Shown: positions 3,742-64,000, counted from the first letter of the stretch. The stretch is DNA of 64,000 bases from an uncultured Gammaproteobacteria bacterium (GCA_964612105.1 CAZTEU010000001.1:4047-68046), one strand, 5' to 3'. A program made the numbers and translations. The notes: generated by a model not told the origin, from the sequence alone.

Positions 3742-5148
3742 ATGAAAAAAGCATTATTTTTTGGAGTAGTCTTTTCGTTTCTTATTCTCATAGGTTCTGC
3801 TTCTGCTGAATCTTTTAATTTTTGGGTAAGTAACAACATACTCCTATCTCCAGGTGAGCATTTTGCCGGTGATACAGTAAACGTATACACTGTTGTTGTT
3901 AATAACAACTTTGATAATTTGACTTCTAAAGTGGAATTCCTAAACCATGGAAAAGTTATAGGTAGTACTTCTGTGTCTAATCTAAGTTTTGAAGAAGCAA
4001 AGCAAGTAAAAATAGGATATAAACTACCCGCAGGAAAACAGGAGTTTGCAGTACGCCTTTCTAATGTGCGTGTAGTAGAAGACAGCTCATCAAGATCTTT
4101 GTCATCTGAAGAGGTGGCAACATTTGATTCACAAGCAGTTTTTGATATAGATATTGACACAGATAATGACGATATTGGTGATAAGAAAGATCCTGATGAT
4201 GATAATGATGGGCTTAGTGACTCAGAAGAATATGAAATTGGATCTGACAAAAAGAAGGTAGACACAGATGGGGACACAATAAATGACAAGATTGAGGTAG
4301 ACAGAGGTCTAGATCCTACGAAATCAGATACAGATGGGGATGGTGTAAAGGATAATAAAGACCTGTTCCCAATCGACAAAGGAGAATGGGTTGATGCAGA
4401 TGGAGATGGAATTGGTGACAACAGCGATCCAGATGATGATAATGATGGATTAAGCGATAAAGATGAAAAGAAGTTGGGCAGTGATCCACACAAGGCAGAC
4501 ACAGATGGTGACGGGTTAAGCGACTCTGAAGAGAAAAAATATGGTAGCAGTCCTACAAAATCTGACACGGATGGTGATGGTATAGATGATAAGACGGAAG
4601 TTGCCAATAAGACAAATCCAGCAAATGCTGATTCAGACAATGATGGACTTAGTGACTCACAGGAAGTTCAATACAAGACAGATCCAAATAATAAGGATTC
4701 AGATGGTGATGGACTTAATGATGGAGAGGAGATAAAAAAAGGAACCAATCCTCTCAAAGAGGATTCAGATGGTGATGGTGTTCCAGATTTGACTGATATG
4801 TTTCCTTTAGATGAGAATGAGTCTGTCGATACAGACTTGGATGGAATAGGGAATAACGCAGATGAAGATGATGACAATGATGGACTAAGTGATAAAGAAG
4901 AGGAAGAGAAGGGGACAGATCCATTACTTTCAGATACAGATGATGATGGTGTTTCTGATGCTGATGAAGTGAAAGATGGGACAGACCCGCTAGAAGGGGA
5001 CACAGATGGAGATGGAACGAAGGACTCAAAAGATGATGATCCTTTGGTTCCTTCCAAGTTTAATAAAAAGCGTGCGGTCGGAATTGGGGCGTTAATCTCA
5101 TTTATACTAGCTGTTGGATTCTACGGAGCATATAGCGTTAAGAAATAA
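3742..5148 (+). CDS. Secreted Ca-binding protein with about 14 thrombospondin type-3-like repeats and a C-terminal TM anchor
   Basis: Signal peptide. Repeated DxDxDGxxDxxE / DTDGDG motifs. Ends in the hydrophobic helix AVGIGALISFILAVGFYGAYSVKK. Confidence 0.6.
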   Translation: MKKALFFGVVFSFLILIGSASAESFNFWVSNNILLSPGEHFAGDTVNVYTVVVNNNFDNLTSKVEFLNHGKVIGSTSVSNLSFEEAKQVKIGYKLPAGKQEFAVRLSNVRVVEDSSSRSLSSEEVATFDSQAVFDIDIDTDNDDIGDKKDPDDDNDGLSDSEEYEIGSDKKKVDTDGDTINDKIEVDRGLDPTKSDTDGDGVKDNKDLFPIDKGEWVDADGDGIGDNSDPDDDNDGLSDKDEKKLGSDPHKADTDGDGLSDSEEKKYGSSPTKSDTDGDGIDDKTEVANKTNPANADSDNDGLSDSQEVQYKTDPNNKDSDGDGLNDGEEIKKGTNPLKEDSDGDGVPDLTDMFPLDENESVDTDLDGIGNNADEDDDNDGLSDKEEEEKGTDPLLSDTDDDGVSDADEVKDGTDPLEGDTDGDGTKDSKDDDPLVPSKFNKKRAVGIGALISFILAVGFYGAYSVKK

Positions 5149-32640: not shown

Positions 32641-32781
32641 TACAAAAAAATGGCTATTGCCATAACGTTTATTTTATTGAACCACGAGCCGGGACCATAC
32701 TACGCATTCGCAGTGATGATCCCGGCTCGGGTAACAGGCGCCAGATACCCCGCAGGTATCCTTGTGGTCGCCGGTCAGCGG

Positions 32782-32855
32782 TCGGGTGGGCTGGATTTGA
32801 ACCAGCGACCTTGAGCTTTGTAGGCTCACACTCTACCTGACTGAGCTACCCCCCG
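32782..32855 (-). tRNA. tRNA whose apparent anticodon is ACA (it would read Cys UGU); identity needs checking
   Basis: Minus-strand read CGGGGGGTAGCTCAGTCAGGTAGAGTGTGAGCCTACAAAGCTCAAGGTCGCTGGTTCAAATCCAGCCCACCCGA. Anticodon stem TGAGC/GCTCA, loop CTACAAA. T-arm GCTGGTTCAAATCCAGC. Confidence 0.7.
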
Positions 32856-35291: not shown

Positions 35292-36173
35292 ATGAATAAA
35301 AAAGACAGAAAACTTCCTCGCGCAACAACAGGAATATATATAGTAAATAAGAATGGAGAAATCCTACTTGCTCGTTCCAGTAAATGGAATGATTTACTTG
35401 TTCCACCAGGTGGTCATATAGAATACGGTGAGCCAATTATAGATTGTGTTGTTAGAGAGGCCAAAGAGGAAACCGGACTAGATGTAAAAAATGCTTCACT
35501 GTTGACTGTAATAGACATGATTGAACCAGAGAACTTTAACGCGTATACCACCCACTTTGTAGGACTACAGTTCCGCGCAGAGGTGGATAATCATGAAGAT
35601 GTTGTACTTGAAGAGCGTGAGTTACAGGATTACGAGTGGCTATTGCCAGAAGAAATAGTAAAAAGAGATGACGTGGAAGATTTGTCCAAAAAAATAGTTC
35701 AAGAGTACTTTGTAGATAGTACTCCAGAAAAAATAGACTCATTAAAAATTCAGCTAAATGAATTCAAGGAAGGGTGGAAGAGAGCCCAGGCAGATTATCA
35801 AAATCTGCACAAAAGTGTGGAGGATAATAGGAGTGAACTTGTAAGATTAAGTGAGCTACAGATTCTAAATGAGTTTTTACCAATATTGGATAATTTTAAG
35901 AAGTGTTTTAACTCAGTACCAGAAGACGATAAGCAGTGGGAGAATTGGAAAAAGGGTGTTGAATATATAATGAAACAATTCTCAGACGTAATGAAAGCAC
36001 ATAATATAGAAGATATAAGTACAGTAGGAAAGAAGTTTGATCCAGAGCTACATGAAGCAGTAGGAGAAGAAGAATCAGAAGAAAAAGAGGGGGTTGTAAT
36101 AAGAGAGGTAGACGCTGGATATACAATGAAAGGAAAAGTAATAAAAGTGGCAAAAGTAATTGTATCTAAATAA
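35292..36173 (+). CDS. grpE: Nudix hydrolase domain fused to GrpE nucleotide-exchange factor
   Basis: N-terminal GGHIEYGEPIIDCVVREAKEETGL Nudix box (aa about 30-140). C-terminal GrpE coiled-coil and beta-domain (...GKKFDPELHEAV...VIREVDAGYTMKGKVIKVAKV). Confidence 0.75.
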   Translation: MNKKDRKLPRATTGIYIVNKNGEILLARSSKWNDLLVPPGGHIEYGEPIIDCVVREAKEETGLDVKNASLLTVIDMIEPENFNAYTTHFVGLQFRAEVDNHEDVVLEERELQDYEWLLPEEIVKRDDVEDLSKKIVQEYFVDSTPEKIDSLKIQLNEFKEGWKRAQADYQNLHKSVEDNRSELVRLSELQILNEFLPILDNFKKCFNSVPEDDKQWENWKKGVEYIMKQFSDVMKAHNIEDISTVGKKFDPELHEAVGEEESEEKEGVVIREVDAGYTMKGKVIKVAKVIVSK

Positions 36174-51770: not shown

Positions 51771-52316
51771 ATGGGCATCTTTGACGTTACTTTGCTAACC
51801 ATCATAGCAGGCTTTGGCTTGTTTGGATTGTGGTTTGGGCTAATACACACAATTGGCTCCCTAATAGGAACACTATTAGGAGCATTCCTTGCTGGTAGGT
51901 ATTATGAACCAATGGCAGATTGGCTTGCTGGGGTTACTGGTTGGGAAGGAAATGTACCAGAGGTTGTAATGTTTATTGTTGCGTTTATTGTAATTAATAG
52001 GCTAGTTGGATTTGCCTTCTGGATAATAGATAGAATGTTTAAGGTTGTTACAATTTTACCATTCATGAATTCCTTAAACAGAATTTTAGGTGCTATTGCT
52101 GGTGTTTTTGAGGGAGTAATAACACTTGGTTTAATTCTTTACTTCATAGAAAGATTTCCTTTATCTGAAAAAGTAATGGAAATGATGGCAACATCTGTGG
52201 TTTCCCCAATACTTGTAACAGTTGCTGGAGTTCTTCTACCGCTTCTGCCTGAGGCGCTAAAAGCACTACAGTCTAGTGTTGATTACATAGAAAATATTGT
52301 TCTTGAGCAGATATGA
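51771..52316 (+). CDS. CvpA-family membrane protein
   Basis: Four TM helices with a CvpA-like N-terminus. Confidence 0.5.
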   Translation: MGIFDVTLLTIIAGFGLFGLWFGLIHTIGSLIGTLLGAFLAGRYYEPMADWLAGVTGWEGNVPEVVMFIVAFIVINRLVGFAFWIIDRMFKVVTILPFMNSLNRILGAIAGVFEGVITLGLILYFIERFPLSEKVMEMMATSVVSPILVTVAGVLLPLLPEALKALQSSVDYIENIVLEQI

Positions 52317-54139
52317 GCATAAGGTTGTTAGGTATCCTATTGTCTGTACTATTAATAAATGGGTGTGGTTTTTCACCTTTTTATTTTTCTCAAAGTGCAG
52401 AATTTAATTTGGAATTTAGTAAAGAAAAAGAATACCAGTATGCCGGACCTTGGGATACAGAAATATATGAAGTGTCGTACAAGCGTGCAGAGAGAATAGA
52501 ACCTCTAGCTATCAAAGAAGAAATTAAAGGTGGAATTGTACCTCACCATCTAATGTCAGGACACTCAATTGCGGAGTTTTTTGAAACAATAAAAAAAGAT
52601 AGCCCATCGACAATTGTATTAATTGGTCCTAATCATTTCATGAGAGGGCAATCTTCTATAATTACAACAATGTTAGATTGGAAAACTCCATATGGTGATA
52701 TTAGAACAGACAAGAAAATTACTAATAAATTAGTAAAAGATGGTGTGCTAAAAGTAGATGAGGAAGTTATTAAAGAAGAACATAGTGTTTACTCATTAAC
52801 TAGCTTTATAGCAAGGTCTGTCCCAAAAGCAAGGGTTGTTTCTATAATTATAAAGGAAGACGCAAAAGACGATGAACTAAATAGACTAGTAGACTCCCTG
52901 AAGGAATATTCACCAAAAGATACAGTTTTTGTTGGCTCTATCGACTTCTCACATTATCAGACACCGGAGGTGGCTCAGTTTCATGATGACCTCTCGATTA
53001 ATGTAATTAAAAGTTTTGATTACCCCAGAATTAATAGTACAGAGATAGATTCACATAAGACTCTATACACAATATTAAAATTAATGGAATTAGGAGGGAA
53101 TCAGCGAATAGTAGCAGAAAGACATACAAATTCTGCGCTTGTTGTTGGTGACAAGGGTGGTAAAAATACAACTTCGCATTATATTCCATATTTTGCAAAA
53201 GGCGAGCCAGAAACAGAGAAATCAATTAGCCTCTTATTTTTTGGGGACATGATGCTGGATAGAAATGTAAAGAACAGGATAGATAAAAATGAGGGTGGAG
53301 ACTATCTTTTTAGGGAGCTTGCTGGGATAGAGAATAGGTTTTTTACAGGGATGGACCTAGTTCATGCAAATCTAGAGGGTCCTTTTGCTAATTACAGACG
53401 AGAAACAACAAAAGAAATTGCTTTTCGATTCAATCCAACATTACTTCCAACATTAAAAAAATATAATTTTGATATATTTACTTTAGCCAACAATCATTCA
53501 TTAGATATGGGTCATGCTGGCTTTGCTGAAGGGAAGAAAAATCTAGAAGAATATGGTTTTGATTATTATGGTGAGCAATTAAAAGTTAGTGAAGACAGTT
53601 TACTTACAAAAGAGATTGCTGGAAAGAAGATAGGATTTATTGGACTTAATGATACAAACACTCCGATTAATGAAACTAAAGTTAAAGCTCTTATTAAAGA
53701 CACAAAAGAGAAGGTGGATTATGTAATTATAAATGTACACTGGGGAGCAGAGTATATCCCAACCTCGCAAAAAAGAAGCAAGTATCTAGCACACTTATTT
53801 GTGGATGCCGGAGCAGATGTAATTATTGGGCACCACCCTCATGTTGTGCAAGAAATGGAAATATATAAAGACAAGCCAATATTCTATTCCTTAGGAAATT
53901 TTGTTTTTGATCAGTATTTTTCTATCCCAACTCAACAGTCAATCGGAGTTGGATTAATTCTAAAAAATGAAGATACTTCCGTGTACGTTTTCCCTTTCGA
54001 AGGGGAAGAAAGCCAAATTAGACAAATGCCATATGAAAAAGGTGAGAAATTCATGCAAGATTTTATTGACAAAAGCCGTCTAGATGGATATAATTTCAAT
54101 GATTTTTCACTAAAAATAAACAAATATGAGCAAAAATAA
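52313..54139 (+). CDS. Fusion of Memo-like (AmmeMemoRadiSam system protein B-like) domain with CapA-type metallophosphatase domain
   Basis: GGIVPHHLMSGH...LIGPNHF (Memo-like). LLFFGDMMLDRNV, ANNHSLDMGHAGF and GHHPHVVQE...YSLGNF (CapA/PGA_cap). Confidence 0.55.
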   Translation: MSIRLLGILLSVLLINGCGFSPFYFSQSAEFNLEFSKEKEYQYAGPWDTEIYEVSYKRAERIEPLAIKEEIKGGIVPHHLMSGHSIAEFFETIKKDSPSTIVLIGPNHFMRGQSSIITTMLDWKTPYGDIRTDKKITNKLVKDGVLKVDEEVIKEEHSVYSLTSFIARSVPKARVVSIIIKEDAKDDELNRLVDSLKEYSPKDTVFVGSIDFSHYQTPEVAQFHDDLSINVIKSFDYPRINSTEIDSHKTLYTILKLMELGGNQRIVAERHTNSALVVGDKGGKNTTSHYIPYFAKGEPETEKSISLLFFGDMMLDRNVKNRIDKNEGGDYLFRELAGIENRFFTGMDLVHANLEGPFANYRRETTKEIAFRFNPTLLPTLKKYNFDIFTLANNHSLDMGHAGFAEGKKNLEEYGFDYYGEQLKVSEDSLLTKEIAGKKIGFIGLNDTNTPINETKVKALIKDTKEKVDYVIINVHWGAEYIPTSQKRSKYLAHLFVDAGADVIIGHHPHVVQEMEIYKDKPIFYSLGNFVFDQYFSIPTQQSIGVGLILKNEDTSVYVFPFEGEESQIRQMPYEKGEKFMQDFIDKSRLDGYNFNDFSLKINKYEQK

Positions 54140-56237
54140 ATGGAAAGGTTTTTTAGATATAATTAACGGACAGAGTGATAAGTTAGTTACCTATATCTTT
54201 GCATTTAGTATAGTATTCGTAGTGATTATTTATGCATTGGTAATCCTTGGTATAACTATTGGTAAAACTACAATAAAATTACATTATTTAAAGGATACAA
54301 AGGTTTCTACAGATGATTCTAAAACTTACAATGACGAAGGGGTGGTATTTGATCAATATGCGCTTGAAAATGCAGGAACTCCAAAATATCTTGATTACCT
54401 GAATAATAATAACTCTGGAAAAATATATACAGTAGGCCCACCTATGAGAGGTCAGAATGTTCTTGGTGAGTGGACAGCAAACGAGAATGAGTATAGAGAA
54501 TATACTTTAAAAAGTGATGTTACAGGCACAAGGCTTTCTATTAAAATAGATTGGGAGAAATATGGTAAACCACTCTCAAAGAGGAATATAAATAAAGTTA
54601 TAGAAAAGGTTGGTGGCATTTCTGAGGAAGGTCAGAAGTATCTAGATAATCTAGATACAGAATACGGTGATTGCTATTACGACGAGTTCTTCGTACCAGA
54701 AGACGAAAAGGAGAAAATTAGATGTGGAATAAGAATATGGGAGGCGGGTACAGTTACAGCGCCAGACAAGATTGCTGGAAGCAAAGTATACTATATTGGT
54801 TATACAGTACCAGGGATGGGGGTATTCGAGGAAGTTACTACTGCCTTTTTAAGTGAGGATCTTAATAAATTTGTCTTCTTAAAACAAGGTGGTACGGGAG
54901 AATACGATGCTAACGGGCTAACATACAATATCGCAGCGGCAGAACTTTTTGATGGATATATAACATATAATGCTGAGGAATATTACGACACTCCAGAGAA
55001 AATATTAATTCCCAATACAAACTCCCACCTAAAATACTATGGACAAAGAACATCTCCTTGGGATGTTTTGGCAAAAGATAATGGAAATGACAAGAAAGTT
55101 TTTACAGATTTTGAAGCTGGAGATGTTATGTTTGATGGAAGTTCACACTACACGTACAAGTCAAACGGCAATTCATTCAATTATATATTTGTTCCTCCAT
55201 TTCTTAGTCATGAAGATTATAATGAAAAAGATTTTTATAGAGCAGGATATGTAAGTGATATAGTTTGGAGCAAAAAGGGTGAGAGTAATGCAGAATTATT
55301 TCAGATTGGAGGAGATATTACATATGGCGGATGTTCATCAGGGATAGACTCACTTGACTCAAATATTGTAAATGGAAAGAAATGGTTTGATGAGTCTTAT
55401 TTAGAAGAAGTTGGAAAGACAAAATATGGTGGTGGAATATACGAGTTTGCAGAAAAGTACAGAAAAACTAGTGAGATATATGATGATTTATATAAATTTG
55501 GGATGACAGCTAGGATGTACAGAGAATTAGATCCAGACTTTGAGGACATATCAGAATCAAAAAAACGAGTACTCTTCCAAGAAGACACTCCAATAATATT
55601 CTGGAAGGATTATTTGGGCAACTGGAGATCCTATTACAAAGACACATATCAGACAGCTGCAGAATGTGGGAAACCCGTGATCTATCTTTACCCGGAAGAA
55701 ATAACAGATGTGCGTGTGCAAGTGGAACCAAATGGAGGTTTGACATACGTAGACCCGGCGTATCCAGAGGATGGTTGGTTTGTGCGTGCAGAGCCTAATG
55801 GAACAATATACAATTATGAAAATGACACAGAATATCCATATTTATTCTGGGAGGGTCATGCGGACGGAATAAGTGTCCCAGAAGAAGGATTTGTAATGTC
55901 TAATGAGGAGGTACCAGTGCAGATGAGAGATTTATTAGTGGAGGCAGGGCTTAACAGCGTAGAAACAGAAGATTTTATGGATTTTTGGGAGGATTATCTA
56001 ATGGTAAAACCATACGTGTTTGTTACCTTCGTTTCTCAACGCGAATTTGATATTGCTGTACCACTAAATGTAGAACCAAAACCAGACTATGTACACAGAC
56101 TATTCATGTACTACGAACCACTTGATAGACCTAAAGAAGTAGAACCATTAAGAATTAGTGTCCCAGAGCGCCACGGCTTCTCTGTAATAGAATGGGGTGG
56201 AGGTACTCATCATATAGATATACAAGATGCTCGTTGA
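54126..56237 (+). CDS. Large membrane-anchored hypothetical protein (703 aa)
   Basis: One N-terminal TM helix, then a large extracytoplasmic domain with no recognised motif. Confidence 0.4.
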   Translation: MSKNKWKGFLDIINGQSDKLVTYIFAFSIVFVVIIYALVILGITIGKTTIKLHYLKDTKVSTDDSKTYNDEGVVFDQYALENAGTPKYLDYLNNNNSGKIYTVGPPMRGQNVLGEWTANENEYREYTLKSDVTGTRLSIKIDWEKYGKPLSKRNINKVIEKVGGISEEGQKYLDNLDTEYGDCYYDEFFVPEDEKEKIRCGIRIWEAGTVTAPDKIAGSKVYYIGYTVPGMGVFEEVTTAFLSEDLNKFVFLKQGGTGEYDANGLTYNIAAAELFDGYITYNAEEYYDTPEKILIPNTNSHLKYYGQRTSPWDVLAKDNGNDKKVFTDFEAGDVMFDGSSHYTYKSNGNSFNYIFVPPFLSHEDYNEKDFYRAGYVSDIVWSKKGESNAELFQIGGDITYGGCSSGIDSLDSNIVNGKKWFDESYLEEVGKTKYGGGIYEFAEKYRKTSEIYDDLYKFGMTARMYRELDPDFEDISESKKRVLFQEDTPIIFWKDYLGNWRSYYKDTYQTAAECGKPVIYLYPEEITDVRVQVEPNGGLTYVDPAYPEDGWFVRAEPNGTIYNYENDTEYPYLFWEGHADGISVPEEGFVMSNEEVPVQMRDLLVEAGLNSVETEDFMDFWEDYLMVKPYVFVTFVSQREFDIAVPLNVEPKPDYVHRLFMYYEPLDRPKEVEPLRISVPERHGFSVIEWGGGTHHIDIQDAR

Positions 56238-57072
56238 TTCACATTGCCACATTCAATTTAAGGCTTTTAACAATGACCGTAATGAGGTCATTGTTAAGTG
56301 TGCAGAAAATAATATAGTAATGAATGTGGTGGGGACACAGGCGGATACCAGTAAATTAGCAGTGGAACTTGCTGAGAAATATGACAATATATATGCAACC
56401 GTTGGGCTTCATCCGATACAGAAGTATGTAATTCCTGTAAAAGAAGAAGATACAAGTTTTACAGCCAGAGGTGAAGACTTTGATTTTGATTTCTATGATA
56501 ATCTGATTAAAAGTTCTAAAAAAGTAATAGCTGTAGGGGAGACAGGTCTGGATAAGTATCATATTCCAAAAGATAAAACCTCAGAAGAAATCTTTGAAAA
56601 ACAAAAAGAAACTTTTCTTCAACATTACAAACTTGCAGAGAAAAACAATTTACCACTTGTTATTCATGTGCGCGATGCACACGAAGAAATGCTTTCTGTA
56701 ATTGAAGAGCTTCCAAAACCTGTAAGAGGTACAATTCATTGCTTTTCTGGAAATAGGGAGCAGGCAGAGCGATATGTCGACGCAGGACTTTATCTAGGTT
56801 TTACTGGAGTTATAACATTCCCTCCTAAAAAAACTAATCCAAAACCTCAGAATGATTTGATTGATGTTATAAAAAACATGCCATTGGATAAAATATTAAT
56901 AGAAACAGATGCCCCATATCTTGCTCCACAGGCATATAGAGGAAAAAGATGCGAACCTTGGATGGTTGGAGAGTGTGCGAAAAAGGTAGTAGAGATTCGC
57001 GGTATAAAAGAAGAGGAGGTAGAAAAAATTACAGTGGAAAACACAAAGAGGTTATTTTCTAAAATTAAGTAA
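56227..57072 (+). CDS. tatD: TatD-family metal-dependent hydrolase
   Basis: MLVDSHCHIQF plus later His/Asp/Glu motifs (IHVRDAHEE, ETDAPYL). Confidence 0.8.
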   Translation: MLVDSHCHIQFKAFNNDRNEVIVKCAENNIVMNVVGTQADTSKLAVELAEKYDNIYATVGLHPIQKYVIPVKEEDTSFTARGEDFDFDFYDNLIKSSKKVIAVGETGLDKYHIPKDKTSEEIFEKQKETFLQHYKLAEKNNLPLVIHVRDAHEEMLSVIEELPKPVRGTIHCFSGNREQAERYVDAGLYLGFTGVITFPPKKTNPKPQNDLIDVIKNMPLDKILIETDAPYLAPQAYRGKRCEPWMVGECAKKVVEIRGIKEEEVEKITVENTKRLFSKIK

Positions 57073-57083
57073 TACAACAATTC

Positions 57084-57353
57084 ATGCCAATACTTCCAGA
57101 AGATCCAAAAGATAGGAAATATGCAATACTTGGAATAAAGATAGCAGGGGATTTTGGTGCAACCTTAGCTGTCCCAATAGTGGTTTTTGTGGTGGTGGCT
57201 CAGTGGCTCGCTCAGAAGTATGGTTTAGGGTTGTGGATAACTATTTTAGCTTTTGTGCTAGCAGCCTCACTTTCTGCTAGTATTATTGTAAGGAAGGCAA
57301 AGATGTACGGAAAACAGTATCAGGATTTAGATACAGATACCAAAGAAAACTAG
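57084..57353 (+). CDS. Small 2-TM protein preceding F0 set 1 (AtpZ/AtpI/AtpR-like accessory subunit)
   Basis: 89 aa, two hydrophobic helices, placed immediately upstream of atpB. Confidence 0.35.
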   Translation: MPILPEDPKDRKYAILGIKIAGDFGATLAVPIVVFVVVAQWLAQKYGLGLWITILAFVLAASLSASIIVRKAKMYGKQYQDLDTDTKEN

Positions 57354-57354
57354 T

Positions 57355-58134
57355 ATGGAGATACATATCCCAACATTAGCTCCTGAGGTTATATTTAATC
57401 TGGGGCCTATTGCCATAACAAATACTTTGATTAATACATGGATAGCAATTATTTTGTTCCTTCTCTTGGCATATGCGCTTAGAGGGAAGATTAAAATGAA
57501 GCCCGGTAAACTACAGAATGCTTGTGAACATGTCCTAGAATTGTTATTTCCTTATTTTGATCAGGTAACAGGTGATAGGAAGAAAACAATTAGGTTTTTA
57601 CCTGTAGTGGGCTCTATCTTCTTTTTTATATTACTGTCTAATTGGTTGGGGTTAATTCCAGGTACAGGCAGTATTAGTGTTGGGCACAACTTCTTACTAC
57701 GACCTGCTAATTCAGATTTAAACCTAACTGTGGCAATGGCACTAGTTGCAGTAATCTCCTCACACCTATTTGGTTTTATTACAATTGGGGTATTTACACA
57801 TGTAGGCAAATTTTTACAATTTGGTGGATTTATTAAAAGTCTTAAAAAAGGGCCGATTGCAATATTTACAGCAATAATAGAATTTGGTGTAGGTATTCTA
57901 GAGATTATTAGTGAGATTGCAAAAATATTATCTTTGTCTCTACGTTTGTTTGGAAATATATTTGCTGGCGAAGTGCTAATTTCTGTAATAGGTGCACTAG
58001 TAGCTTTTCTGGTTCCAACTCCTTTTATGCTTTTAGAGCTACTTGTTGGCTTGATACAAGCATCCGTATTTGCTATGTTAACTTTGGTGTATTTAACGGT
58101 TGCAAGTGAAATGCCCCATGGTTCGCATGATTAA
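57355..58134 (+). CDS. atpB: ATP synthase F0 subunit a, copy 1
   Basis: LSLSLRLFGNIFAGEVL with the conserved Arg. Confidence 0.9.
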   Translation: MEIHIPTLAPEVIFNLGPIAITNTLINTWIAIILFLLLAYALRGKIKMKPGKLQNACEHVLELLFPYFDQVTGDRKKTIRFLPVVGSIFFFILLSNWLGLIPGTGSISVGHNFLLRPANSDLNLTVAMALVAVISSHLFGFITIGVFTHVGKFLQFGGFIKSLKKGPIAIFTAIIEFGVGILEIISEIAKILSLSLRLFGNIFAGEVLISVIGALVAFLVPTPFMLLELLVGLIQASVFAMLTLVYLTVASEMPHGSHD

Positions 58135-58215
58135 TTATTGTATTTATTAAGATTCCATCCGCGAGGTTAAAAATCATTCCCACTCGGCCGGCTCTGGAGT
58201 TATAACAAAAACCGT

Positions 58216-58449
58216 ATGTTTCAAGGACTAGATCACGCATCCGTAGTGGTGCTAGCGAAGGCATTTACTATTGGTATTGGTAGTATAGGGCCTGCCTTTG
58301 CTATTGGAAGACTTGTGGCCAAGGCAATGGAAGCTATTGGTAGAAATCCAGGAGCAGCTGGAAAAGTATTCGTTCCCATGCTTCTTGGGGCTGCTTTTGC
58401 AGAGGCAATTGCAATTTATGCACTTGTTGTTGTGTTTACACTTAAATAA
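58216..58449 (+). CDS. atpE: ATP synthase F0 subunit c, copy 1 (H+-type ion site)
   Basis: Hairpin c-subunit. Ion site AFAEAIAIY with no Ser/Thr after Glu, and no Gln/Glu in helix 1. Confidence 0.85.
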   Translation: MFQGLDHASVVVLAKAFTIGIGSIGPAFAIGRLVAKAMEAIGRNPGAAGKVFVPMLLGAAFAEAIAIYALVVVFTLK

Positions 58450-58452
58450 TTC

Positions 58453-59061
58453 TTGTCGCAAGACACTAAAAGTCTGAATATGGCGACAGAAATACACATT
58501 GATGAACATGTAGCTGAAGATGGAGTAGAGGTTCATACTACAGTGGAATCTCATGGCGCTGCAGCTGATGAAGGTGTTTTAGCATCACTTGGACTAAATG
58601 CCCAGTTGTTTGGTTTTCAGGTGCTCAATTTTGCAATAGTGGTGCTTGTACTATGGTTTTTAATACTAAAACCTCTTGTAAAGCAGATGGAAGAGAGAAA
58701 AACTCTTGTAGATGAGAGTATAGACAATGCAAAAGAGGCAGAAGTTAACCTAGAAATGAGCAAAAAGAAGTATGAAGAGTCCTTAGATAAAGCTAAAACC
58801 GAGGCAAATAAGATTGTAGAAAAAGCTCATGATGATGCAAGACAGCACGCAGAAGGTGTAAAAACGAGAGCTAAGGAAGAGATAGAGCAGTTAATTGACA
58901 AAGCAAAGAATGATATTAGGGATCAAAGGGTACACATGGTCGATGAAATAAAAGAGGAGACTCTAGGCCTTGTTGTAAGGATATCTGAGAAATTCTTAGC
59001 AACAAAGGTAGATAAAGAGTCAGATACTAAGATAATTGAAGAAATTGTAAAGAATATATAA
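58453..59061 (+). CDS. atpF: ATP synthase F0 subunit b, copy 1
   Basis: N-terminal TM helix, then a long charged coiled coil. Confidence 0.8.
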   Translation: MSQDTKSLNMATEIHIDEHVAEDGVEVHTTVESHGAAADEGVLASLGLNAQLFGFQVLNFAIVVLVLWFLILKPLVKQMEERKTLVDESIDNAKEAEVNLEMSKKKYEESLDKAKTEANKIVEKAHDDARQHAEGVKTRAKEEIEQLIDKAKNDIRDQRVHMVDEIKEETLGLVVRISEKFLATKVDKESDTKIIEEIVKNI

Positions 59062-59133
59062 TATAACTAGATTTGAGCTAAGATAAGATACATTTTACCT
59101 GCTACACTTATACACAAAAATTAAAAAAAACAT

Positions 59134-59161
59134 TGACAAAATTGCGCAACTTCTATATAAT
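59134..59161 (+). promoter_or_regulatory. Sigma70-like promoter between F0 set 1 and set 2
   Basis: TTGACA, a 16-nt spacer, TATAAT. Confidence 0.45.
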
Positions 59162-59177
59162 AGTTGCGCTTTTATTT

Positions 59178-59471
59178 ATGACAGATAGTAAATTAGAACA
59201 AAAAAGAGAGGAACTGAGGCATAAGACATTTAAGCTTATGTTGAGGGTCCTTATTATATTTGGAATACCAGCTATTATTGCTTATTTTGCAGGTAATCAT
59301 CTAGATAGTACATACAATATGCGTCCATACGGCTCATTAATAGCAATTATGGTTGCACTAACAATATCGTGGATTATTACTTTTAGGATGTATGTAAAAT
59401 TAAATAGAGAGTTTCGTAGTCTAAGATCAGCTCAGGAGAAAGAAATTGAGGAGGAAGAGAAATCAATATAA
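59178..59471 (+). CDS. Small 2-TM protein preceding F0 set 2 (AtpI/AtpR-like); start taken at the internal ATG downstream of the promoter
   Basis: Two hydrophobic helices. Same position relative to atpB as in set 1. Confidence 0.35.
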   Translation: MTDSKLEQKREELRHKTFKLMLRVLIIFGIPAIIAYFAGNHLDSTYNMRPYGSLIAIMVALTISWIITFRMYVKLNREFRSLRSAQEKEIEEEEKSI

Positions 59472-59473
59472 AT

Positions 59474-60253
59474 ATGTTATTTAGTGTAAAAGCAGAACAA
59501 GCACCCATAAGACCAGAGACAATTTTTAATATCGGATCTCTAGATATAACAAACGCAATGATTTTGGGTGTAATAATAACAATTGGTTTTACATTTTTTT
59601 CCCTGTACATAAGAAAAAGAAGAAAACTTGTACCATCAAAATTTCAGACTATATTAGAAATTACAGTACAAAGCTTTCTCAATTTATTAGAACAGATTGC
59701 TGGATCAAAAAAAGCAGCAAGGACACTTCTTCCACTTGTAGGGACAATATTCTTGTTTTTTGGTGTTTCAAACCTTATAGGATTAATTCCGGGTGTTACA
59801 GCTTTCACATACAATGGAGCACCTTTGCTTAGAACACCTACAAATGATTTCAACATGACATTTAGTATTGCTCTTGCTATGATTATACTTACACAGGTTG
59901 TGAGTATTAAGGAATTTGGACTTTTTGGGCACCTTGGTAAGTTTATTAAAGTGAAAGAAGTTATAGTTGGGTTTAGGCATGGGTTTAAAAGTGGAATAAT
60001 GTCTATTGTAGATTTTGTTCTAGGGTTACTGGATATAATTTCAGAAATTGCAAAAGTGTTCTCACTTTCGCTAAGGCTGTTTGGAAATATGTATGCTGGA
60101 GAAGTGTTGATGGTTGTTCTACTGGGAGCATTTGCAGTTGCTGTGCCAAGTATTTGGTTAGCTATGAACCTACTTGTGGGAGTATTGCAGGCAATGGTAT
60201 TTGGAGCACTTACAGCTGCGTATTATGGACTGGCTGTACAAAAAATGGAGTAA
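59474..60253 (+). CDS. atpB: ATP synthase F0 subunit a, copy 2
   Basis: FSLSLRLFGNMYAGEVL. Confidence 0.85.
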   Translation: MLFSVKAEQAPIRPETIFNIGSLDITNAMILGVIITIGFTFFSLYIRKRRKLVPSKFQTILEITVQSFLNLLEQIAGSKKAARTLLPLVGTIFLFFGVSNLIGLIPGVTAFTYNGAPLLRTPTNDFNMTFSIALAMIILTQVVSIKEFGLFGHLGKFIKVKEVIVGFRHGFKSGIMSIVDFVLGLLDIISEIAKVFSLSLRLFGNMYAGEVLMVVLLGAFAVAVPSIWLAMNLLVGVLQAMVFGALTAAYYGLAVQKME

Positions 60254-60284
60254 ATAAATTTAACTTAATTAATAATATAAATAT

Positions 60285-60500
60285 ATGGAAGTAGAAGCAG
60301 CACACCTTATCGCAAAAGGGCTTTGTACAATTACCATGGGAGGTTCTGGTATTGGTGAGGGATACCTCATAGGAAAGGCTTTAGAAGCTATTGGACGAAA
60401 CCCTAAAGTAGAGGGTAATATATTTCCAAAGATGTTTATTGGAGTTGCATTAGCAGAGTCCACTGCTATTTACGCTCTAGTTGCATTCTTTATTATCTAA
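60285..60500 (+). CDS. atpE: ATP synthase F0 subunit c, copy 2 (Na+-type ion site)
   Basis: GIGEGYLIGKALEAIGRNP...ALAESTAIYALV. The E-S-T...Y signature matches Na+-binding c-subunits (for example I. tartaricus AESTGIYSLV), with Glu in place of the helix-1 Gln. Confidence 0.85.
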   Translation: MEVEAAHLIAKGLCTITMGGSGIGEGYLIGKALEAIGRNPKVEGNIFPKMFIGVALAESTAIYALVAFFII

Positions 60501-60557
60501 AGTAGATTGTGTAGCCCTGGCGCTCAGGGCCACATAGATGTATAGTAGATAATCAAT

Positions 60558-61061
60558 ATGCAGTTTATATTAGAAAACTTAGGAAAAATAGGATTTGAGT
60601 GGAAAATGGCTCTTTTTAACCTTGTAAACTTCCTTATTCTTTTTTGGATACTTAAGAGGTATTTCTTCAAGCCAATTGTTGCTACAATAGACGAAAGACA
60701 GGCAAAGGCTAAAGAGAGTATGGATAATTTCCAAAGAGCCAAGACAGAACTTCAGTTAGCTGAGAAGAGGGCACAAGATATTGTAGATGAGGCAAAAGTC
60801 GAATCGAACAAGATAATTTCCAAATCACATGATGATGGAAAAGAACTTGGTCAGAATTTGCGTTTGCGTGCTAAAGAGGAGATTGAAAAGGTGATTGATC
60901 AGGCTAAACAAAATATAGAGGTAGATAGAAAGAAAATGAGAGAGGAGCTAAAAAAAGAGACTGCTGGACTTGTGGTTTCTGCTGTAGAAAAAGTAATTGA
61001 TACAAAATTAGATAAAAAAAGTGATGAAAAGATTGTAAAAGAAGCAATAGTGCAACTATAA
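60558..61061 (+). CDS. atpF: ATP synthase F0 subunit b, copy 2
   Basis: TM helix plus coiled coil. Confidence 0.75.
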   Translation: MQFILENLGKIGFEWKMALFNLVNFLILFWILKRYFFKPIVATIDERQAKAKESMDNFQRAKTELQLAEKRAQDIVDEAKVESNKIISKSHDDGKELGQNLRLRAKEEIEKVIDQAKQNIEVDRKKMREELKKETAGLVVSAVEKVIDTKLDKKSDEKIVKEAIVQL

Positions 61062-61062
61062 T

Positions 61063-61452
61063 ATGCCAAAGTTAATCCCCCAACAATATGCTAAACTACT
61101 GTATGGACTAACCAAAGGTCTTGAGGGGAAGAAACTGGATAGTGCTGTGAGGGTTTTTGCGGACTACCTTAAAAAGGAACAGTCATTATCTAAAGTGGAT
61201 TACATCTTAAAACACTTTGAATCTTACGCAAAAGAAAAGGAAGGAATAACTCAGATTAGTATTACAGGAGCTAGGAAATTGTCTACTGAATCAGTTGATG
61301 AAATTAAAAAATCGTTTGGAAAGAACGTAGAAACTGTTACCGGCACCGATAAATCGTTAATAGGTGGAGTTATAGTCAGAACAAAAAACACTATTTTAGA
61401 TGGAAGTATAAGAACCCAATTACAAAATCTTAAAAGAAAAATGTCTAAATAA
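61063..61452 (+). CDS. atpH: ATP synthase F1 subunit delta (OSCP), short form
   Basis: Position between b and alpha. 129 aa with the helical OSCP N-domain. Confidence 0.65.
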
Positions 61453-62948
61453 TGCATATGTCATATACAGATACAGTGATCAGCGCACTTAAAAAGCACA
61501 TAGACGAATTTAAAAGCGACGTGAATATAGAGGAAGTAGGTACAGTCATGGAAGTTAAGGATGGTATTGCAAGAGTAGATGGACTAACAAGTTGTCAATC
61601 GCAAGAAATGCTAGAGTTTCCGGGAGGGACGCACGGAATTGCTCTTAACCTAGAGGAAGAAACAGTTGGTGCTGTTATATTAGGACCTTTTTCACACATT
61701 AAAGAAGGGGACACAGTAAAAAGAACGAAGAAAATCATGTCTGTACCTGTTGGAGACGCTTTAATTGGAAGGGTTGTTAACTCACTTGGACAGGCTATAG
61801 ATGGGGAGGGTGATATAAAAACAAACGAATCCGCACCAATTGAAAAAGTTGCTCCTGGTGTAATGACACGTGAACCTGTTAATCGTCCATTACAGACCGG
61901 TGTTAAAGCAATCGATGCTCTAATTCCAATTGGACGAGGACAACGTGAACTTATTATTGGGGATCGTCAGACAGGAAAAACAGCGATTGCAATAGATACA
62001 ATTCTTAATCAAAAAGGACAAGATGTAATTTGTATATATGTTGCTGTAGGTCAGAAAGAGTCTAAGGTTGCTCGCCTTGTTGCTAAACTAAAAGAGGGTG
62101 GAGCCATGGATTACACGACAGTTGTTGTTGCAGGTGCATCAGAACCAGCCCCTATGAGTTATATTGCTCCATATTCTGGTGTTACAATGGCAGAATACTT
62201 CTCAGGAAAAGGAAAAGATGTATTAATAATTTATGATGATTTAACACGTCAGGCATGGGCATATCGTGAAATGTCATTACTATTACGTCGTCCACCAGGA
62301 CGTGAGGCATATCCAGGTGATGTTTTTTATCTTCACTCTAGACTTTTAGAACGTGCATGTAACCTAAATGAAGAAAATGGTGGTGGTTCTATTACAGCTC
62401 TACCTATTATAGAAACACAGGGTGGTGATATTTCTGCATATATTCCTACAAACGTAATTTCCATTACAGACGGACAAATCTTTCTAGAAACAGACCTATT
62501 CTATCGTGGAATTAGACCAGCGCTAAATGTTGGACTTTCTGTGTCTCGTGTTGGTGGTTCTGCTCAGATTAAGCCAATGAAAAAAGTAGCTGGAAGTATG
62601 AAACTTGCACTAGCTCAGTTTAGAGAATTAGAAGCATTTGCTCAGTTTGCAAGTGATTTGGATGCAGAAACTAAGTCACAGATTGACAGGGGGCGTAGAA
62701 TTACAGAGATGTTAAAACAGCCACAGTACGAACCATTACCTGTAGAACAGCAGGTTGCTTCAATTTTTGCTGTAGATAGGGGCTACTTTGATGATATAGA
62801 TGTTAATGATGTAACAAAGAAAGAGGCTGAGTTTATTTCATTTATGACAAAAAGCAAAGGAAAACTACTAGAGAAAATTTCCTCTGGAGAATGGGATGAG
62901 AAAGTGGAGACAGAACTTAAATCAGCCTGTGAAGAATTCAAGAAATAG
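61452..62948 (+). CDS. atpA: ATP synthase F1 subunit alpha
   Basis: GDRQTGKTA Walker A; full length. Confidence 0.97.
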
Positions 62949-62960
62949 CCTTTCTTAATT

Positions 62961-63920
62961 ATGGCAGTTAATACAAAAGCAATTAAGAGACGTATAAAAT
63001 CTGTTACAAACACCAAGAAAATTACAAAGGCTATGGAGATGGTGTCAGCAGCAAAAATGCGTAAATCAGTAGACGCAACACTCAATACTAGAGTGTATGC
63101 AATGCTTGGTCGTGAGCTTTTGGAAAAACTATCTGGACTGCACGGAGGCGGAAATGCACCACTTCTAGAGGTGCGCTCTGTACAAAATGTTCTCGTTGTT
63201 GTAATAACATCAAACAGAGGACTTTGTGGGAGTTTTAACACAAATGTTACAAAGAGGGCGCAGAAATTAATATCTGAAATAAAAGATTTTGCTGCGCAGA
63301 CAACTGAAGATGGTGAGACGCTAGAACCCAAAGGAAAAATAAATGTAAAAGTAGTAGGTCTTGGAAAGAAAAGTGTGGGATTTGCAAAAAGAAATGAGCT
63401 AGAGCTTGTTGGTGTTTTTGATGAACTCAGAGAGAAGCCGGACTTTGATGATATCTTACCTATCACAAAAATAATGATGGATGGCTATAAGGAAGGCACA
63501 TACGACAAGGTTTTTGTTGTATATACGGACTATGTTTCAAGTATTGTACAGGAAACTAAAATTAGACAACTATTACCACTAAAAAAGCAACATATTGATG
63601 AGATGATTAAAGAACTCGGTAAAAACGAGGAGGAAAAGGAAATTCTTGATGACTTTCATATTGACACAGCAATATTAGAGCCAAGAATAGACGATATTAT
63701 AAATATTGTTATACCAAGATTGGTTGAGATACAGTTATACCAATCAATATTGGAAAGCGCAGCTAGTGAACACAGTGCTCGTATGCTTGCTATGAAAAGC
63801 GCAAGCGAAGCTGCAGAAGAAATGATAGACTCACTAACACTAACATACAACAAAGGTCGACAAGCAGCAATTACACAGGAAATTGCAGAAATAGCTGGTG
63901 GGGCAGCTGCTCTAGAATAA
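62961..63920 (+). CDS. atpG: ATP synthase F1 subunit gamma
   Basis: N- and C-terminal conserved gamma helices (ITKAMEMVSAAKMRK...AAITQEIAEIAGGAAAL). Confidence 0.9.
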   Translation: MAVNTKAIKRRIKSVTNTKKITKAMEMVSAAKMRKSVDATLNTRVYAMLGRELLEKLSGLHGGGNAPLLEVRSVQNVLVVVITSNRGLCGSFNTNVTKRAQKLISEIKDFAAQTTEDGETLEPKGKINVKVVGLGKKSVGFAKRNELELVGVFDELREKPDFDDILPITKIMMDGYKEGTYDKVFVVYTDYVSSIVQETKIRQLLPLKKQHIDEMIKELGKNEEEKEILDDFHIDTAILEPRIDDIINIVIPRLVEIQLYQSILESAASEHSARMLAMKSASEAAEEMIDSLTLTYNKGRQAAITQEIAEIAGGAAALE

Positions 63921-64000
63921 TTTGGCGCTTGACACCTGGTAAATTTTATCAGATGTTAATCGCTAAAATGTTAAATAATAATGATTATGAATAAAGGAAA

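Follow-up and report, generated by a model that had tools for sequence, protein, structure and literature searches.

The 64,000-nucleotide stretch of DNA considered here (GCA_964612105.1, CAZTEU010000001.1:4047-68046; the whole stretch is hereafter called the window), which carries the name of an uncultured Gammaproteobacteria bacterium, contains an F-type ATPase operon in which the F0 motor is encoded twice in tandem and the F1 head only once. An open reading frame (ORF) map of positions 54000-64000 shows two complete F0 cassettes at 57084-61061, each with genes for a small protein with two transmembrane (TM) helices and for subunits a, c and b, followed by one delta-alpha-gamma set. The two cassettes differ in their predicted ion-binding sites, the first having an H+-type and the second a Na+-type signature. 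In window coordinates, the genes of the locus and its left flank are:

56227..57072, +, TatD-family hydrolase, with its stop codon 11 nt before s1; this left flank of the atp locus is kept in all three genome classes (cassette 1 only, cassette 2 only, both)
57084..57353, +, s1, 89-residue 2-TM protein of the AtpQ or "ATPase gene 1" family, first gene of cassette 1 (PF09527, 26.5 bits against a cutoff of 26.6)
57355..58134, +, a1, F0 subunit a of cassette 1, predicted H+-type partner (PF00119, E = 2.1e-40; essential Arg at R197)
58216..58449, +, c1, F0 subunit c with a predicted H+-type site (PF00137; alignment to the I. tartaricus ring)
58453 (TTG) or 58480 (ATG)..59061, +, b1, F0 subunit b of cassette 1 (PF00430; 193-202 residues)
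59178..59471 (alternative TTG start at 59133), +, s2, 97-residue 2-TM protein, first gene of cassette 2 (weak PF09527 match, E = 0.011)
59474..60253, +, a2, F0 subunit a of cassette 2, predicted Na+-type partner (PF00119, E = 2.6e-40; essential Arg at R201)
60285..60500, +, c2, F0 subunit c of 71 residues with the complete two-carboxylate Na+ ligand set (PF00137; gap-free alignment to solved Na+ rings)
60558..61061, +, b2, F0 subunit b of cassette 2 (PF00430; 167 residues; delta directly 3′)
61063..61452, +, delta (OSCP), short 129-residue form, single copy common to both cassettes (PF00213, E = 1.6e-21)
61452..62948, +, F1 alpha, single copy (Pfam)
62961..63920, +, F1 gamma, single copy (Pfam/NCBIfam profiles)

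A preliminary description of the window had proposed two complete paralogous F0 modules in front of a single delta-alpha-gamma set, with no second F1, and this arrangement is borne out. All eight F0 ORFs were found, both sets of a, c and b are assigned to PF00119, PF00137 and PF00430 with E-values from 1e-15 to 1e-40, and both c subunits have two TM helices, a helix-2 carboxylate and the R-N/Q-P loop. On the 90-kb source contig (L001), the beta and epsilon genes lie 3′ of gamma, just past the end of the window, and unrelated genes come next; because each of these subunits is present in a single copy there, only one F1 is encoded. The spacer between the cassettes (b1 to s2) measures 71-116 nt. 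The small 2-TM genes are regular members of their cassettes, with s1 orthologues located upstream of a1 in cassette-1-only genomes and s2 kept 5′ of a2 in cassette-2-only genomes.

Two further features concern individual subunits. The delta protein matches only positions 62-172 of the OSCP profile, and the N-terminal part of its alpha-binding domain is seemingly missing. Among the loci L008-L028 and L089-L176, delta ORFs are approximately 126-143 residues long in all Patescibacteria loci seen (one, L026, has 179 residues), compared with approximately 180-230 residues in Proteobacteria loci. The delta of L178 has 91 residues, and L177 has no separate delta call and a 595-residue alpha that may be a delta-alpha fusion. 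In addition, b1 and its orthologues carry a hydrophilic N-terminal extension of approximately 45 residues before the TM helix (N-terminus of b1 at 58453-58620), acidic and His-rich and absent from b2, which would lie outside the cell if b adopts its usual topology.

Homologues of a1 and a2 are found in Candidatus Magasanikbacteria and other Patescibacteria, and the remainder of the window consists of housekeeping genes typical of the candidate phyla radiation (CPR). The F-type ATPase operon described here belongs to a marine member of Candidatus Magasanikbacteria (Patescibacteria/CPR). No respiratory, Na+-pump or Na+-cycle genes were found in the 64 kb of the window. The taxonomic label of the record appears to be part of a wider pattern, as several records entitled "MAG TPA_asm: uncultured Gammaproteobacteria bacterium" (among L009, L010, L016, L018, L020, L023 and L024) contain Patescibacteria-type atp operons and flanks, and are apparently mislabeled.

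A tandem arrangement of this kind could also be produced by an assembly or binning error in which two related populations are collapsed into one chimeric contig. However, independent ENA, JGI and Logan assemblies of the window organism all show this layout unchanged, and the same double arrangement is present in two further organisms, represented by a 1.23-Mb chromosome-level record (L007, GCA_965231005.1) and by a Logan contig (L169). The paralogs are only 39% (a), 50% (c, over 52 residues) and 40% (b) identical, s1 and s2 have no similarity detectable by pairwise comparison, and the sole DNA-level repeat between the cassettes is a 50-nt segment of 70% identity that covers conserved c-loop codons. 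These results, together with conserved features at the junction, exclude both an assembly duplication or chimera and a recent duplication. The preliminary description had named an artefactual duplication as an outcome that would undo it, but the double F0 stands, with independent assemblies and three lineages in agreement. The assembly, relative and repeat comparisons yielded nothing in favor of an artefact, and we regard the chance of one as negligible.

Evidence for two different coupling ions comes from the c subunits. When aligned with HMMER, c2 matches the F. nucleatum (3ZK1) and I. tartaricus (1YCE) rings without gaps at an offset of 7. The Na+ ion of the F. nucleatum ring is coordinated by Glu32, the backbone oxygen of Val63, Glu65, Ser66, a water molecule held by Thr67, and Tyr70, and the variant with a Glu in helix 1 was named "two-carboxylate" in the same structural study (Schulz et al. 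2013, PMC3692424). The corresponding c2 residues are E25, L56 (backbone), E58, S59, T60 and Y63, within the motif GIGEGY...ALAESTAIYALV. Hence, the E-S-T...Y set and the extra helix-1 carboxylate noted in the preliminary description do occupy the ion-site positions, and c2 is predicted to form a Na+-type ring with a two-carboxylate motif. Among the a2-adjacent c subunits of all collected loci, 83 of 85 have the pattern E..ESTxxY, with the other two having Q..ESTxxY. The top PDB match for c2 is the A. woodii ring (4BEM).

The c1 subunit was described at the outset as having a Glu followed by Ala, as expected for an H+-type ring, and its motif AFAEAIAIY is indeed present. A gap-free alignment with 1YCE places I30, F61, E63, A64, I65 and Y68 at I. 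tartaricus positions 32, 63, 65, 66, 67 and 70, such that the helix-2 Glu is accompanied by non-polar residues at positions 32, 66 and 67 and none of the polar Na+ ligands is retained. Because it combines I30, E63, A64, I65 and Y68 and lacks the Na+ ligands, c1 is classified by its residues as an H+-type ring; its best PDB matches include the Spirulina and chloroplast H+ rings. Of 20 Magasanikbacteria c1-type subunits tallied, all have I..EAIxxY except for a single I..ESIxxY. The loop that contacts gamma and epsilon (EAIGRNP) is identical in c1 and c2, whereas the outer-helix packing faces differ.

The a subunits exhibit a matching difference. Residues were numbered against an E. coli a sequence in which the key residues fell at their expected numbers. 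Equivalents of E. coli Arg210, Asn214 and Gln252 are conserved in all a subunits, and the essential Arg that the preliminary description had noted in both copies (R197 in a1, R201 in a2) aligns with R210 within an LSLRLFGN helix. At the positions equivalent to E. coli E196 and H245, a1 has Glu183 and Glu228 whereas a2 has Asp187 and Asn232. This distinction extends well beyond the window, as the E196 equivalent is Glu in 100% of the a subunits that partner H+-type c and Asp in 99% of the a2 family, and the H245 equivalent is Glu in 100% of the former and mostly Asn in the latter. Moreover, Asp and Gly occupy the two positions in L014, L020 and L021, which are independent CPR operons encoding a Na+-type c, and the a subunits of L177 and L178 have Asp/Gly and Asn/Asn, respectively. 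An exhaustive search of representatives, down to approximately 35% identity, recovered a broad a2-like lineage with Asp/Arg/Ser, Gly or Asn markers, and a1-like representatives with Glu/Arg/Glu markers. Two distant a2-like members (39-41% identity to a2) could be placed on contigs, and the neighboring c genes encode ..AEAY.. or ..GEGR.. in helix 1 and LVESTAIY in helix 2. In these alignments, two channel positions of subunit a vary together with the type of c. Since even distant a2-like subunits are encoded beside Na+-type c, cassette 2 is, as judged from its residues, a member of an old F0 lineage whose a and c subunits changed in concert.

Each cassette is also found without the other. Cassette 1 is the sole F0 at 10 loci (L009, L010, L016, L017, L023, L170 and L173-L176) and cassette 2 at approximately 82 (L008, L171 and all 80 loci of a c2-based metagenome scan), with both being present in only three related lineages (the window, L007 and L169). 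The metagenome scan covered the best 80 of at least 348 matches in one collection and finds c2-bearing loci only; cassette 1 was upstream of cassette 2 in none of the 36 evaluable loci, which are those with at least 2.3 kb of sequence 5′ of the first cassette-2 gene. A gamma-based contig scan, whose matches were dominated by one conserved peptide pattern, listed 80 loci of which approximately 20 are from Patescibacteria. The gene order is TatD-s2-a2-c2-b2-delta in cassette-2-only genomes and TatD-s1-a1-c1-b1-delta in several cassette-1-only genomes, and the order in the double genomes is the exact sum of the two. The synteny comparison that had been recommended for this locus thus reveals both a recurrent tandem layout and single-cassette states in other relatives. 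Since each cassette is the sole F0 in many genomes, each should be enough for a working enzyme with this type of F1.

Two additional genes were observed near the 3′ end of the operon in some of these relatives. A Na+/H+ exchanger (PF00999) is encoded directly 3′ of epsilon in the cassette-1-only loci L174 (11633-12484) and L175 (10134-11255), which suggests a different solution for linking proton and sodium gradients. A peptidyl-prolyl isomerase gene is located between beta and epsilon in L171 (16119-16784), which has cassette 2 only, and in the cassette-1-only loci L174 (10084-10734), L175 (8960-9640) and L176 (12266-12910), and serves as a synteny marker common to both F0 types.

The history of the cassettes was examined with neighbor-joining trees (corrected p-distances, 200 bootstraps), with F1 standing in for the phylogeny of the hosts. 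For subunit a, the cassette-2 copies of the double genomes group together (95%) within the cassette-2-only diversity, whereas their cassette-1 copies are placed in the Magasanikbacteria a1 clade (100%), close to L170 and L173-L176. The a2 family is positioned outside all other sampled CPR a subunits (99.5% bootstrap), despite the fact that the raw similarity of a2 is highest to Magasanikbacteria a1. The alpha+gamma tree recovers the double genomes as a monophyletic group (100%), and its supported backbone comprises a clade A of genomes with cassette 2 only (97.5%), a cassette-1-only group (94.5%), and then L170, which has cassette 1 only, with a sub-clade B (99.5%) that holds many cassette-2-only genomes and the double genomes. 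An alpha-only tree, read by its topology, also places the cassette-1-only L174-L176 within sub-clade B. The two kinds of cassette are therefore intermingled on the F1 tree. No supported node sets the a1, a2 and alpha+gamma trees at odds with one another, which fits a long-lived double ancestor as well as cassette exchange. The double state is thus either a retained ancestral condition, with repeated loss of one cassette elsewhere, or an intermediate of cassette exchange by recombination in the conserved flanks, and cassette 2 itself originated either by ancient duplication or by transfer.

Among themselves, the double genomes share 86-88% identity in alpha, 83-85% in gamma and 68-69% in TatD, and these three proteins are closest to those of cassette-2 genomes and of L173-L176. 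The a1 subunits are 77-80% identical among the double genomes and 77-81% identical to those of L173-L176. Since the former values are no higher than the latter, they fit either transfer or an accelerated cassette 1 in the double lineage.

Comparisons between the three double genomes yield ratios of nonsynonymous to synonymous substitution (dN/dS) of 0.03-0.25 for all eight F0 genes, versus 0.04-0.11 for alpha and gamma, with synonymous sites being saturated (proportion of synonymous differences, pS, 0.58-0.82). Both cassettes are under purifying selection, and neither looks to be decaying. We also considered strongly relaxed selection on one of the cassettes. This was not seen, as both evolve only modestly faster relative to alpha in double than in single-cassette genomes (1.73 versus 1.55 for a1 and 2.10 versus 1.96 for a2). 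The relative rates of c and b are somewhat higher in the double genomes, with the largest difference for b1 (3.8 versus 2.3).

The cassettes also appear to differ in how they are transcribed. As the preliminary description had recognized, an internal consensus promoter precedes cassette 2 and F1: a perfect 12-of-12 match to TTGACA-17-TATAAT is present at 59133..59161 (+). The s2-proximal match scores 12, 12 and 11 of 12 in the double genomes and mostly 10-11 of 12 in the listed cassette-2-only loci, with the same 17-nt spacer, and lies 13-28 nt upstream of s2 in most listed loci; coding-sequence controls score 8-9 of 12. From its conservation, we take the element at 59133..59161 to be the native operon promoter of cassette 2 and F1, orthologous to that of cassette-2-only operons. 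Cassette 1 begins 3-12 nt past the TatD stop codon in all three double genomes, and no promoter of its own was found in any of them (the best match close to s1 is 8-9 of 12), although the cassette-1-only L009, L010 and L016 have a 10-of-12 promoter 17-26 nt 5′ of s1. A second perfect 12-of-12 match to TTGACA-17-TATAAT is located at 54066..54094 (+), within the 3′ end of a gene for a 608-residue Memo/PGA_cap protein and approximately 32 nt before a 703-residue ORF. The genes from 54126 to 59061 are overlapping or tightly spaced, with the 703-residue ORF overlapping TatD, and it is plausible that this candidate promoter serves a unit made of the 703-residue gene, TatD and cassette 1. A rough estimate from base composition gives a chance of approximately 0.02 for one perfect match when 8 kb are scanned on either strand, and the region has two of them within 5 kb. 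Downstream of b1, a hairpin followed by a U-run is predicted in L007 (-12.8 kcal/mol, z = -3.2) and in L169 (-8.4 kcal/mol, z = -1.9).

The region upstream of TatD differs between the genomes. Between CvpA and TatD (52313-56237) there are two large genes, encoding the 608-residue Memo and PGA_cap fusion and the 703-residue protein, the latter having no Pfam domain in the contig annotation. This pair is absent from L007, L169 and the single-cassette relatives, and looks like an insertion just 5′ of the atp locus.

We consider it reasonably probable that the locus encodes two self-sufficient alternative F0 motors, one of the H+ type and one of the Na+ type, that would share one F1. Two alternative motors with different coupling ions were already envisaged in the preliminary description; its sequence-level elements are all confirmed, whereas the coupling and the sharing of F1 are predictions. 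According to this model, the cell would build one isoform from F1, a1, b1 and a c1 ring to move H+, and another from F1, a2, b2 and a c2 ring to move Na+, with delta, alpha, beta, gamma and epsilon common to both. Cassette 2 and F1 would be driven from their own consensus promoter. Cassette 1 would be read from the upstream TatD unit, ending at a terminator-like hairpin in two of the three double genomes, and it is through this arrangement that the H+ motor could be regulated separately. CPR bacteria are generally fermentative and have no respiratory chains, and for this reason the likely use of the enzymes would be ATP-driven export of H+ and Na+, or exploitation of whichever gradient is available, without a separate Na+ pump. 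Relatives carry one motor or the other, and the locus therefore looks like one enzyme operating on two ion currencies, a living intermediate of ion switching.

Several observations weigh against the existence of two separately used motors. The double state is rare, being confined to three related lineages, which would also fit a transient condition, and b1 is the fastest-evolving part of the locus. The C-terminal 45 residues of b1 are no closer to those of b2 in double genomes (0.29 identity) than in cassette-1-only genomes (0.34), and hence show no sign of co-adaptation to the shared delta. No terminator was detected after b1 in the window (z = -0.3), so that its cassette 1 transcript would run on into cassette 2; the two motors may plausibly be regulated separately, though not in the same way in all three genomes. 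Finally, the ion specificities are derived from sequence, and a comparable prediction failed for the two-carboxylate ring of the B. pseudomallei N-ATPase, which was predicted to be Na+-selective and was measured to be H+-specific.

This last precedent makes it conceivable that both motors are proton-coupled in vivo, with the paralogs differing in c-ring stoichiometry (gear ratio), pH optimum or preferred direction (synthase versus pump), and the ESTxxY of c2 not being used for Na+ physiologically. Many cassette-2-only relatives are, moreover, named after metagenome-assembled genome (MAG) series such as CG_4_10 and ACD_48C, which we take to be from groundwater or aquifers. However, the B. pseudomallei ring, whose motif is E-T-M..Y rather than E-S-T, is without two ligands, Ser and Thr, that c2 has, and c2 possesses every ligand of the F. 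nucleatum Na+ site, which has been verified by structure and biochemistry. The ligand set is kept in all 85 c subunits paired with an a2-type a, and the matching a channel substitutions occur in independent Na+-type lineages, which together make exclusive use of protons quite unlikely. Alternatively, the duplication might be a replacement of one F0 by another caught midway, in which only cassette 2, with a strong promoter of its own and a direct link to F1, is used physiologically and cassette 1 is a dispensable passenger nearing loss. Such a history would account for the grouping of alpha, gamma, delta and TatD of the double genomes with cassette-2-only genomes, the missing cassette 1 promoter, the somewhat faster evolution of b1 and c1 relative to alpha than in cassette-1-only genomes, and the rarity of the double state. 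Nevertheless, none of the four cassette-1 genes is disrupted in any of the three lineages, between which synonymous sites have reached saturation, and the dN/dS values of these genes (0.03-0.25) are in the range of cassette 2 and overlap those of the F1 genes; c1 keeps its exact AFAEAIAIYALVVVFTL motif, and a1 retains the Arg, the Asn, the Gln and the two Glu. Unused genes are generally considered to disappear quickly from small CPR genomes, and we judge a passenger role for cassette 1 unlikely.

It is also imaginable that the products of the two cassettes mix, giving a heteromeric c1/c2 ring, a b1-b2 heterodimer or both, and a motor that runs on blended H+ and Na+ gradients. In A. woodii, the c genes of a single operon contribute different subunits to a heteromeric ring (PDB 4BEM); b/b′ heterodimers, such as that of cyanobacteria, occur commonly outside this phylum; and the EAIGRNP loop that contacts gamma and epsilon is the same in both c subunits. 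On the other hand, each cassette is complete and is the sole F0 in many relatives, so that homodimeric b and homomeric rings suffice; two distinct a subunits are retained, each with channel residues that match its own c; and c1 and c2 are 50% identical over 52 residues, with different outer-helix packing faces. Mixed assembly thus seems improbable, and two alternative motors remain our preferred explanation. More tentatively, whole F0 cassettes may have been gained and lost in Magasanikbacteria next to an F1 that stayed constant, so that the coupling ion alternated between H+ and Na+, and the double genomes would represent a viable intermediate in which one head is served by two separately regulated motors. 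We regard this broader scenario as possible, though somewhat less likely than not. If it holds, rotary ATPases would have a concrete and loss-free path from one of these ions to the other, and a minimal genome could do without a second complete enzyme.

Other parts of the window contain features unconnected to the ATPase. A tRNA at 32780-32855 (-) was called by ARAGORN and Rfam; its anticodon loop, CUACAAA, gives the anticodon ACA, which makes it a "tRNA-Cys". Outside of tRNA-Arg, an A at position 34 is unusual in bacteria; there is also a G-A mismatch in the acceptor stem, and the discriminator base is apparently A, not the U typical of tRNA-Cys. At 35292-36173, within an hrcA-grpE-dnaK-dnaJ cluster, GrpE (residues 144-293) is preceded by an N-terminal NUDIX hydrolase domain (PF00293, residues 9-137). 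The gene at 3742-5148, which adjoins ComEC-like and metallo-beta-lactamase-fold genes, encodes a 468-residue protein with six bacterial thrombospondin type-3 repeats (PF18884) that is probably a Ca2+-binding surface protein.

It has long been asked in bioenergetics by what route a rotary ATPase exchanges one coupling ion for another, and whether coupling to Na+ or to H+ is the older. The two ion types at this locus appear to be two old and complete F0 lineages, with coevolving a, c and b, rather than point-mutation variants, and each can evidently serve the same kind of F1. Our alignments suggest that a and c jointly determine ion choice, via Glu-to-Asp and Glu-to-Asn, Gly or Ser changes in the channel. 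The small gene set makes both this proposal and the docking of two F0 motors to one F1 testable, as is the notion of a near-minimal, respiration-free cell that keeps both proton and sodium gradients with ATP. For annotation, the c motif and the two a positions constitute a marker pair for Na+-type F0 in CPR genomes.

We found no description in the open-access literature of a tandem double F0 with contrasting ion sites before one F1, or of a Na+-type F0 in Magasanikbacteria. The preliminary description had remarked on a loose resemblance to N-ATPase operons. An N-ATPase is a complete second enzyme, whose separate operon, atpDCQRBEFAG, includes AtpR, encodes a long b and lacks delta (Dibrova, Galperin & Mulkidjanian 2010, PMC2881411). 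Genomes that have an N-ATPase and a regular F-ATPase resemble this locus in combining H+-type and predicted Na+-type F-family motors, in usually having Glu in both helices of the Na+-type c, in encoding a small PF09527 protein 5′ of a, and in the proposed role in Na+ extrusion in marine or saline organisms (PMC2881411). However, an N-ATPase has its own alpha, beta, gamma and epsilon, whereas the locus doubles only F0, in tandem and inside one operon, with the order s-a-c-b, s-a-c-b, delta-alpha-gamma-beta-epsilon. No ORF corresponding to AtpR (three TM helices, two membrane Arg residues) is present in the locus, and neither s1 nor s2 has an AtpR-family match in NCBIfam or Pfam at E <= 0.1. Unlike in N-ATPases, b1 and b2 have no C-terminal extension and delta is present, and the NCBIfam alternate-F1F0 models score far below their cutoffs (77 and 70 versus 302 bits for a, 49 and 39 versus 131 for c, and 56 and 60 versus 225 for b). 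An N-ATPase origin of either cassette is therefore ruled out, and the resemblance does not hold.

The closest precedent, and the sole described case of a doubled F0 with a single F1 that we found, is that of Desulfococcus oleovorans, in which, according to a 215-genome survey, an ectopic second F0 complement is present in this one species and was possibly acquired from Thermotogae by transfer (Koumandou & Kossida 2014, PMC4154653). The extra set comprises a, c and b without a second F1, as here, but is ectopic, whereas the sets described above are tandem and in-operon, have contrasting ion signatures, and occur in three lineages with single states common among relatives. The Na+ F1Fo of F. nucleatum, with its two-carboxylate c11 ring (PDB 3ZK1), has the same ligands at the same aligned positions as c2 (PMC3692424), although it has a single F0, and c2 is shorter (71 residues) and has no C-terminal extension. 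The Na+ F1Fo of Acetobacterium woodii (PDB 4BEM) likewise combines a single F1 with several c paralogs encoded in the same atp operon, but those paralogs enter one hybrid ring, are accompanied by one a and one b, and have exclusively Na+-binding active sites. In the locus, by comparison, whole a, c and b sets are doubled, and their ion signatures differ.

A further parallel is provided by flagellar motors. Bacillus and Shewanella have dual stators, with H+-driven MotAB and Na+-driven MotPS or PomAB acting on one rotor. The protein family is unrelated and the comparison is an analogy only, but the logic is alike, in that two exchangeable, ion-specific modules would serve one rotary machine.

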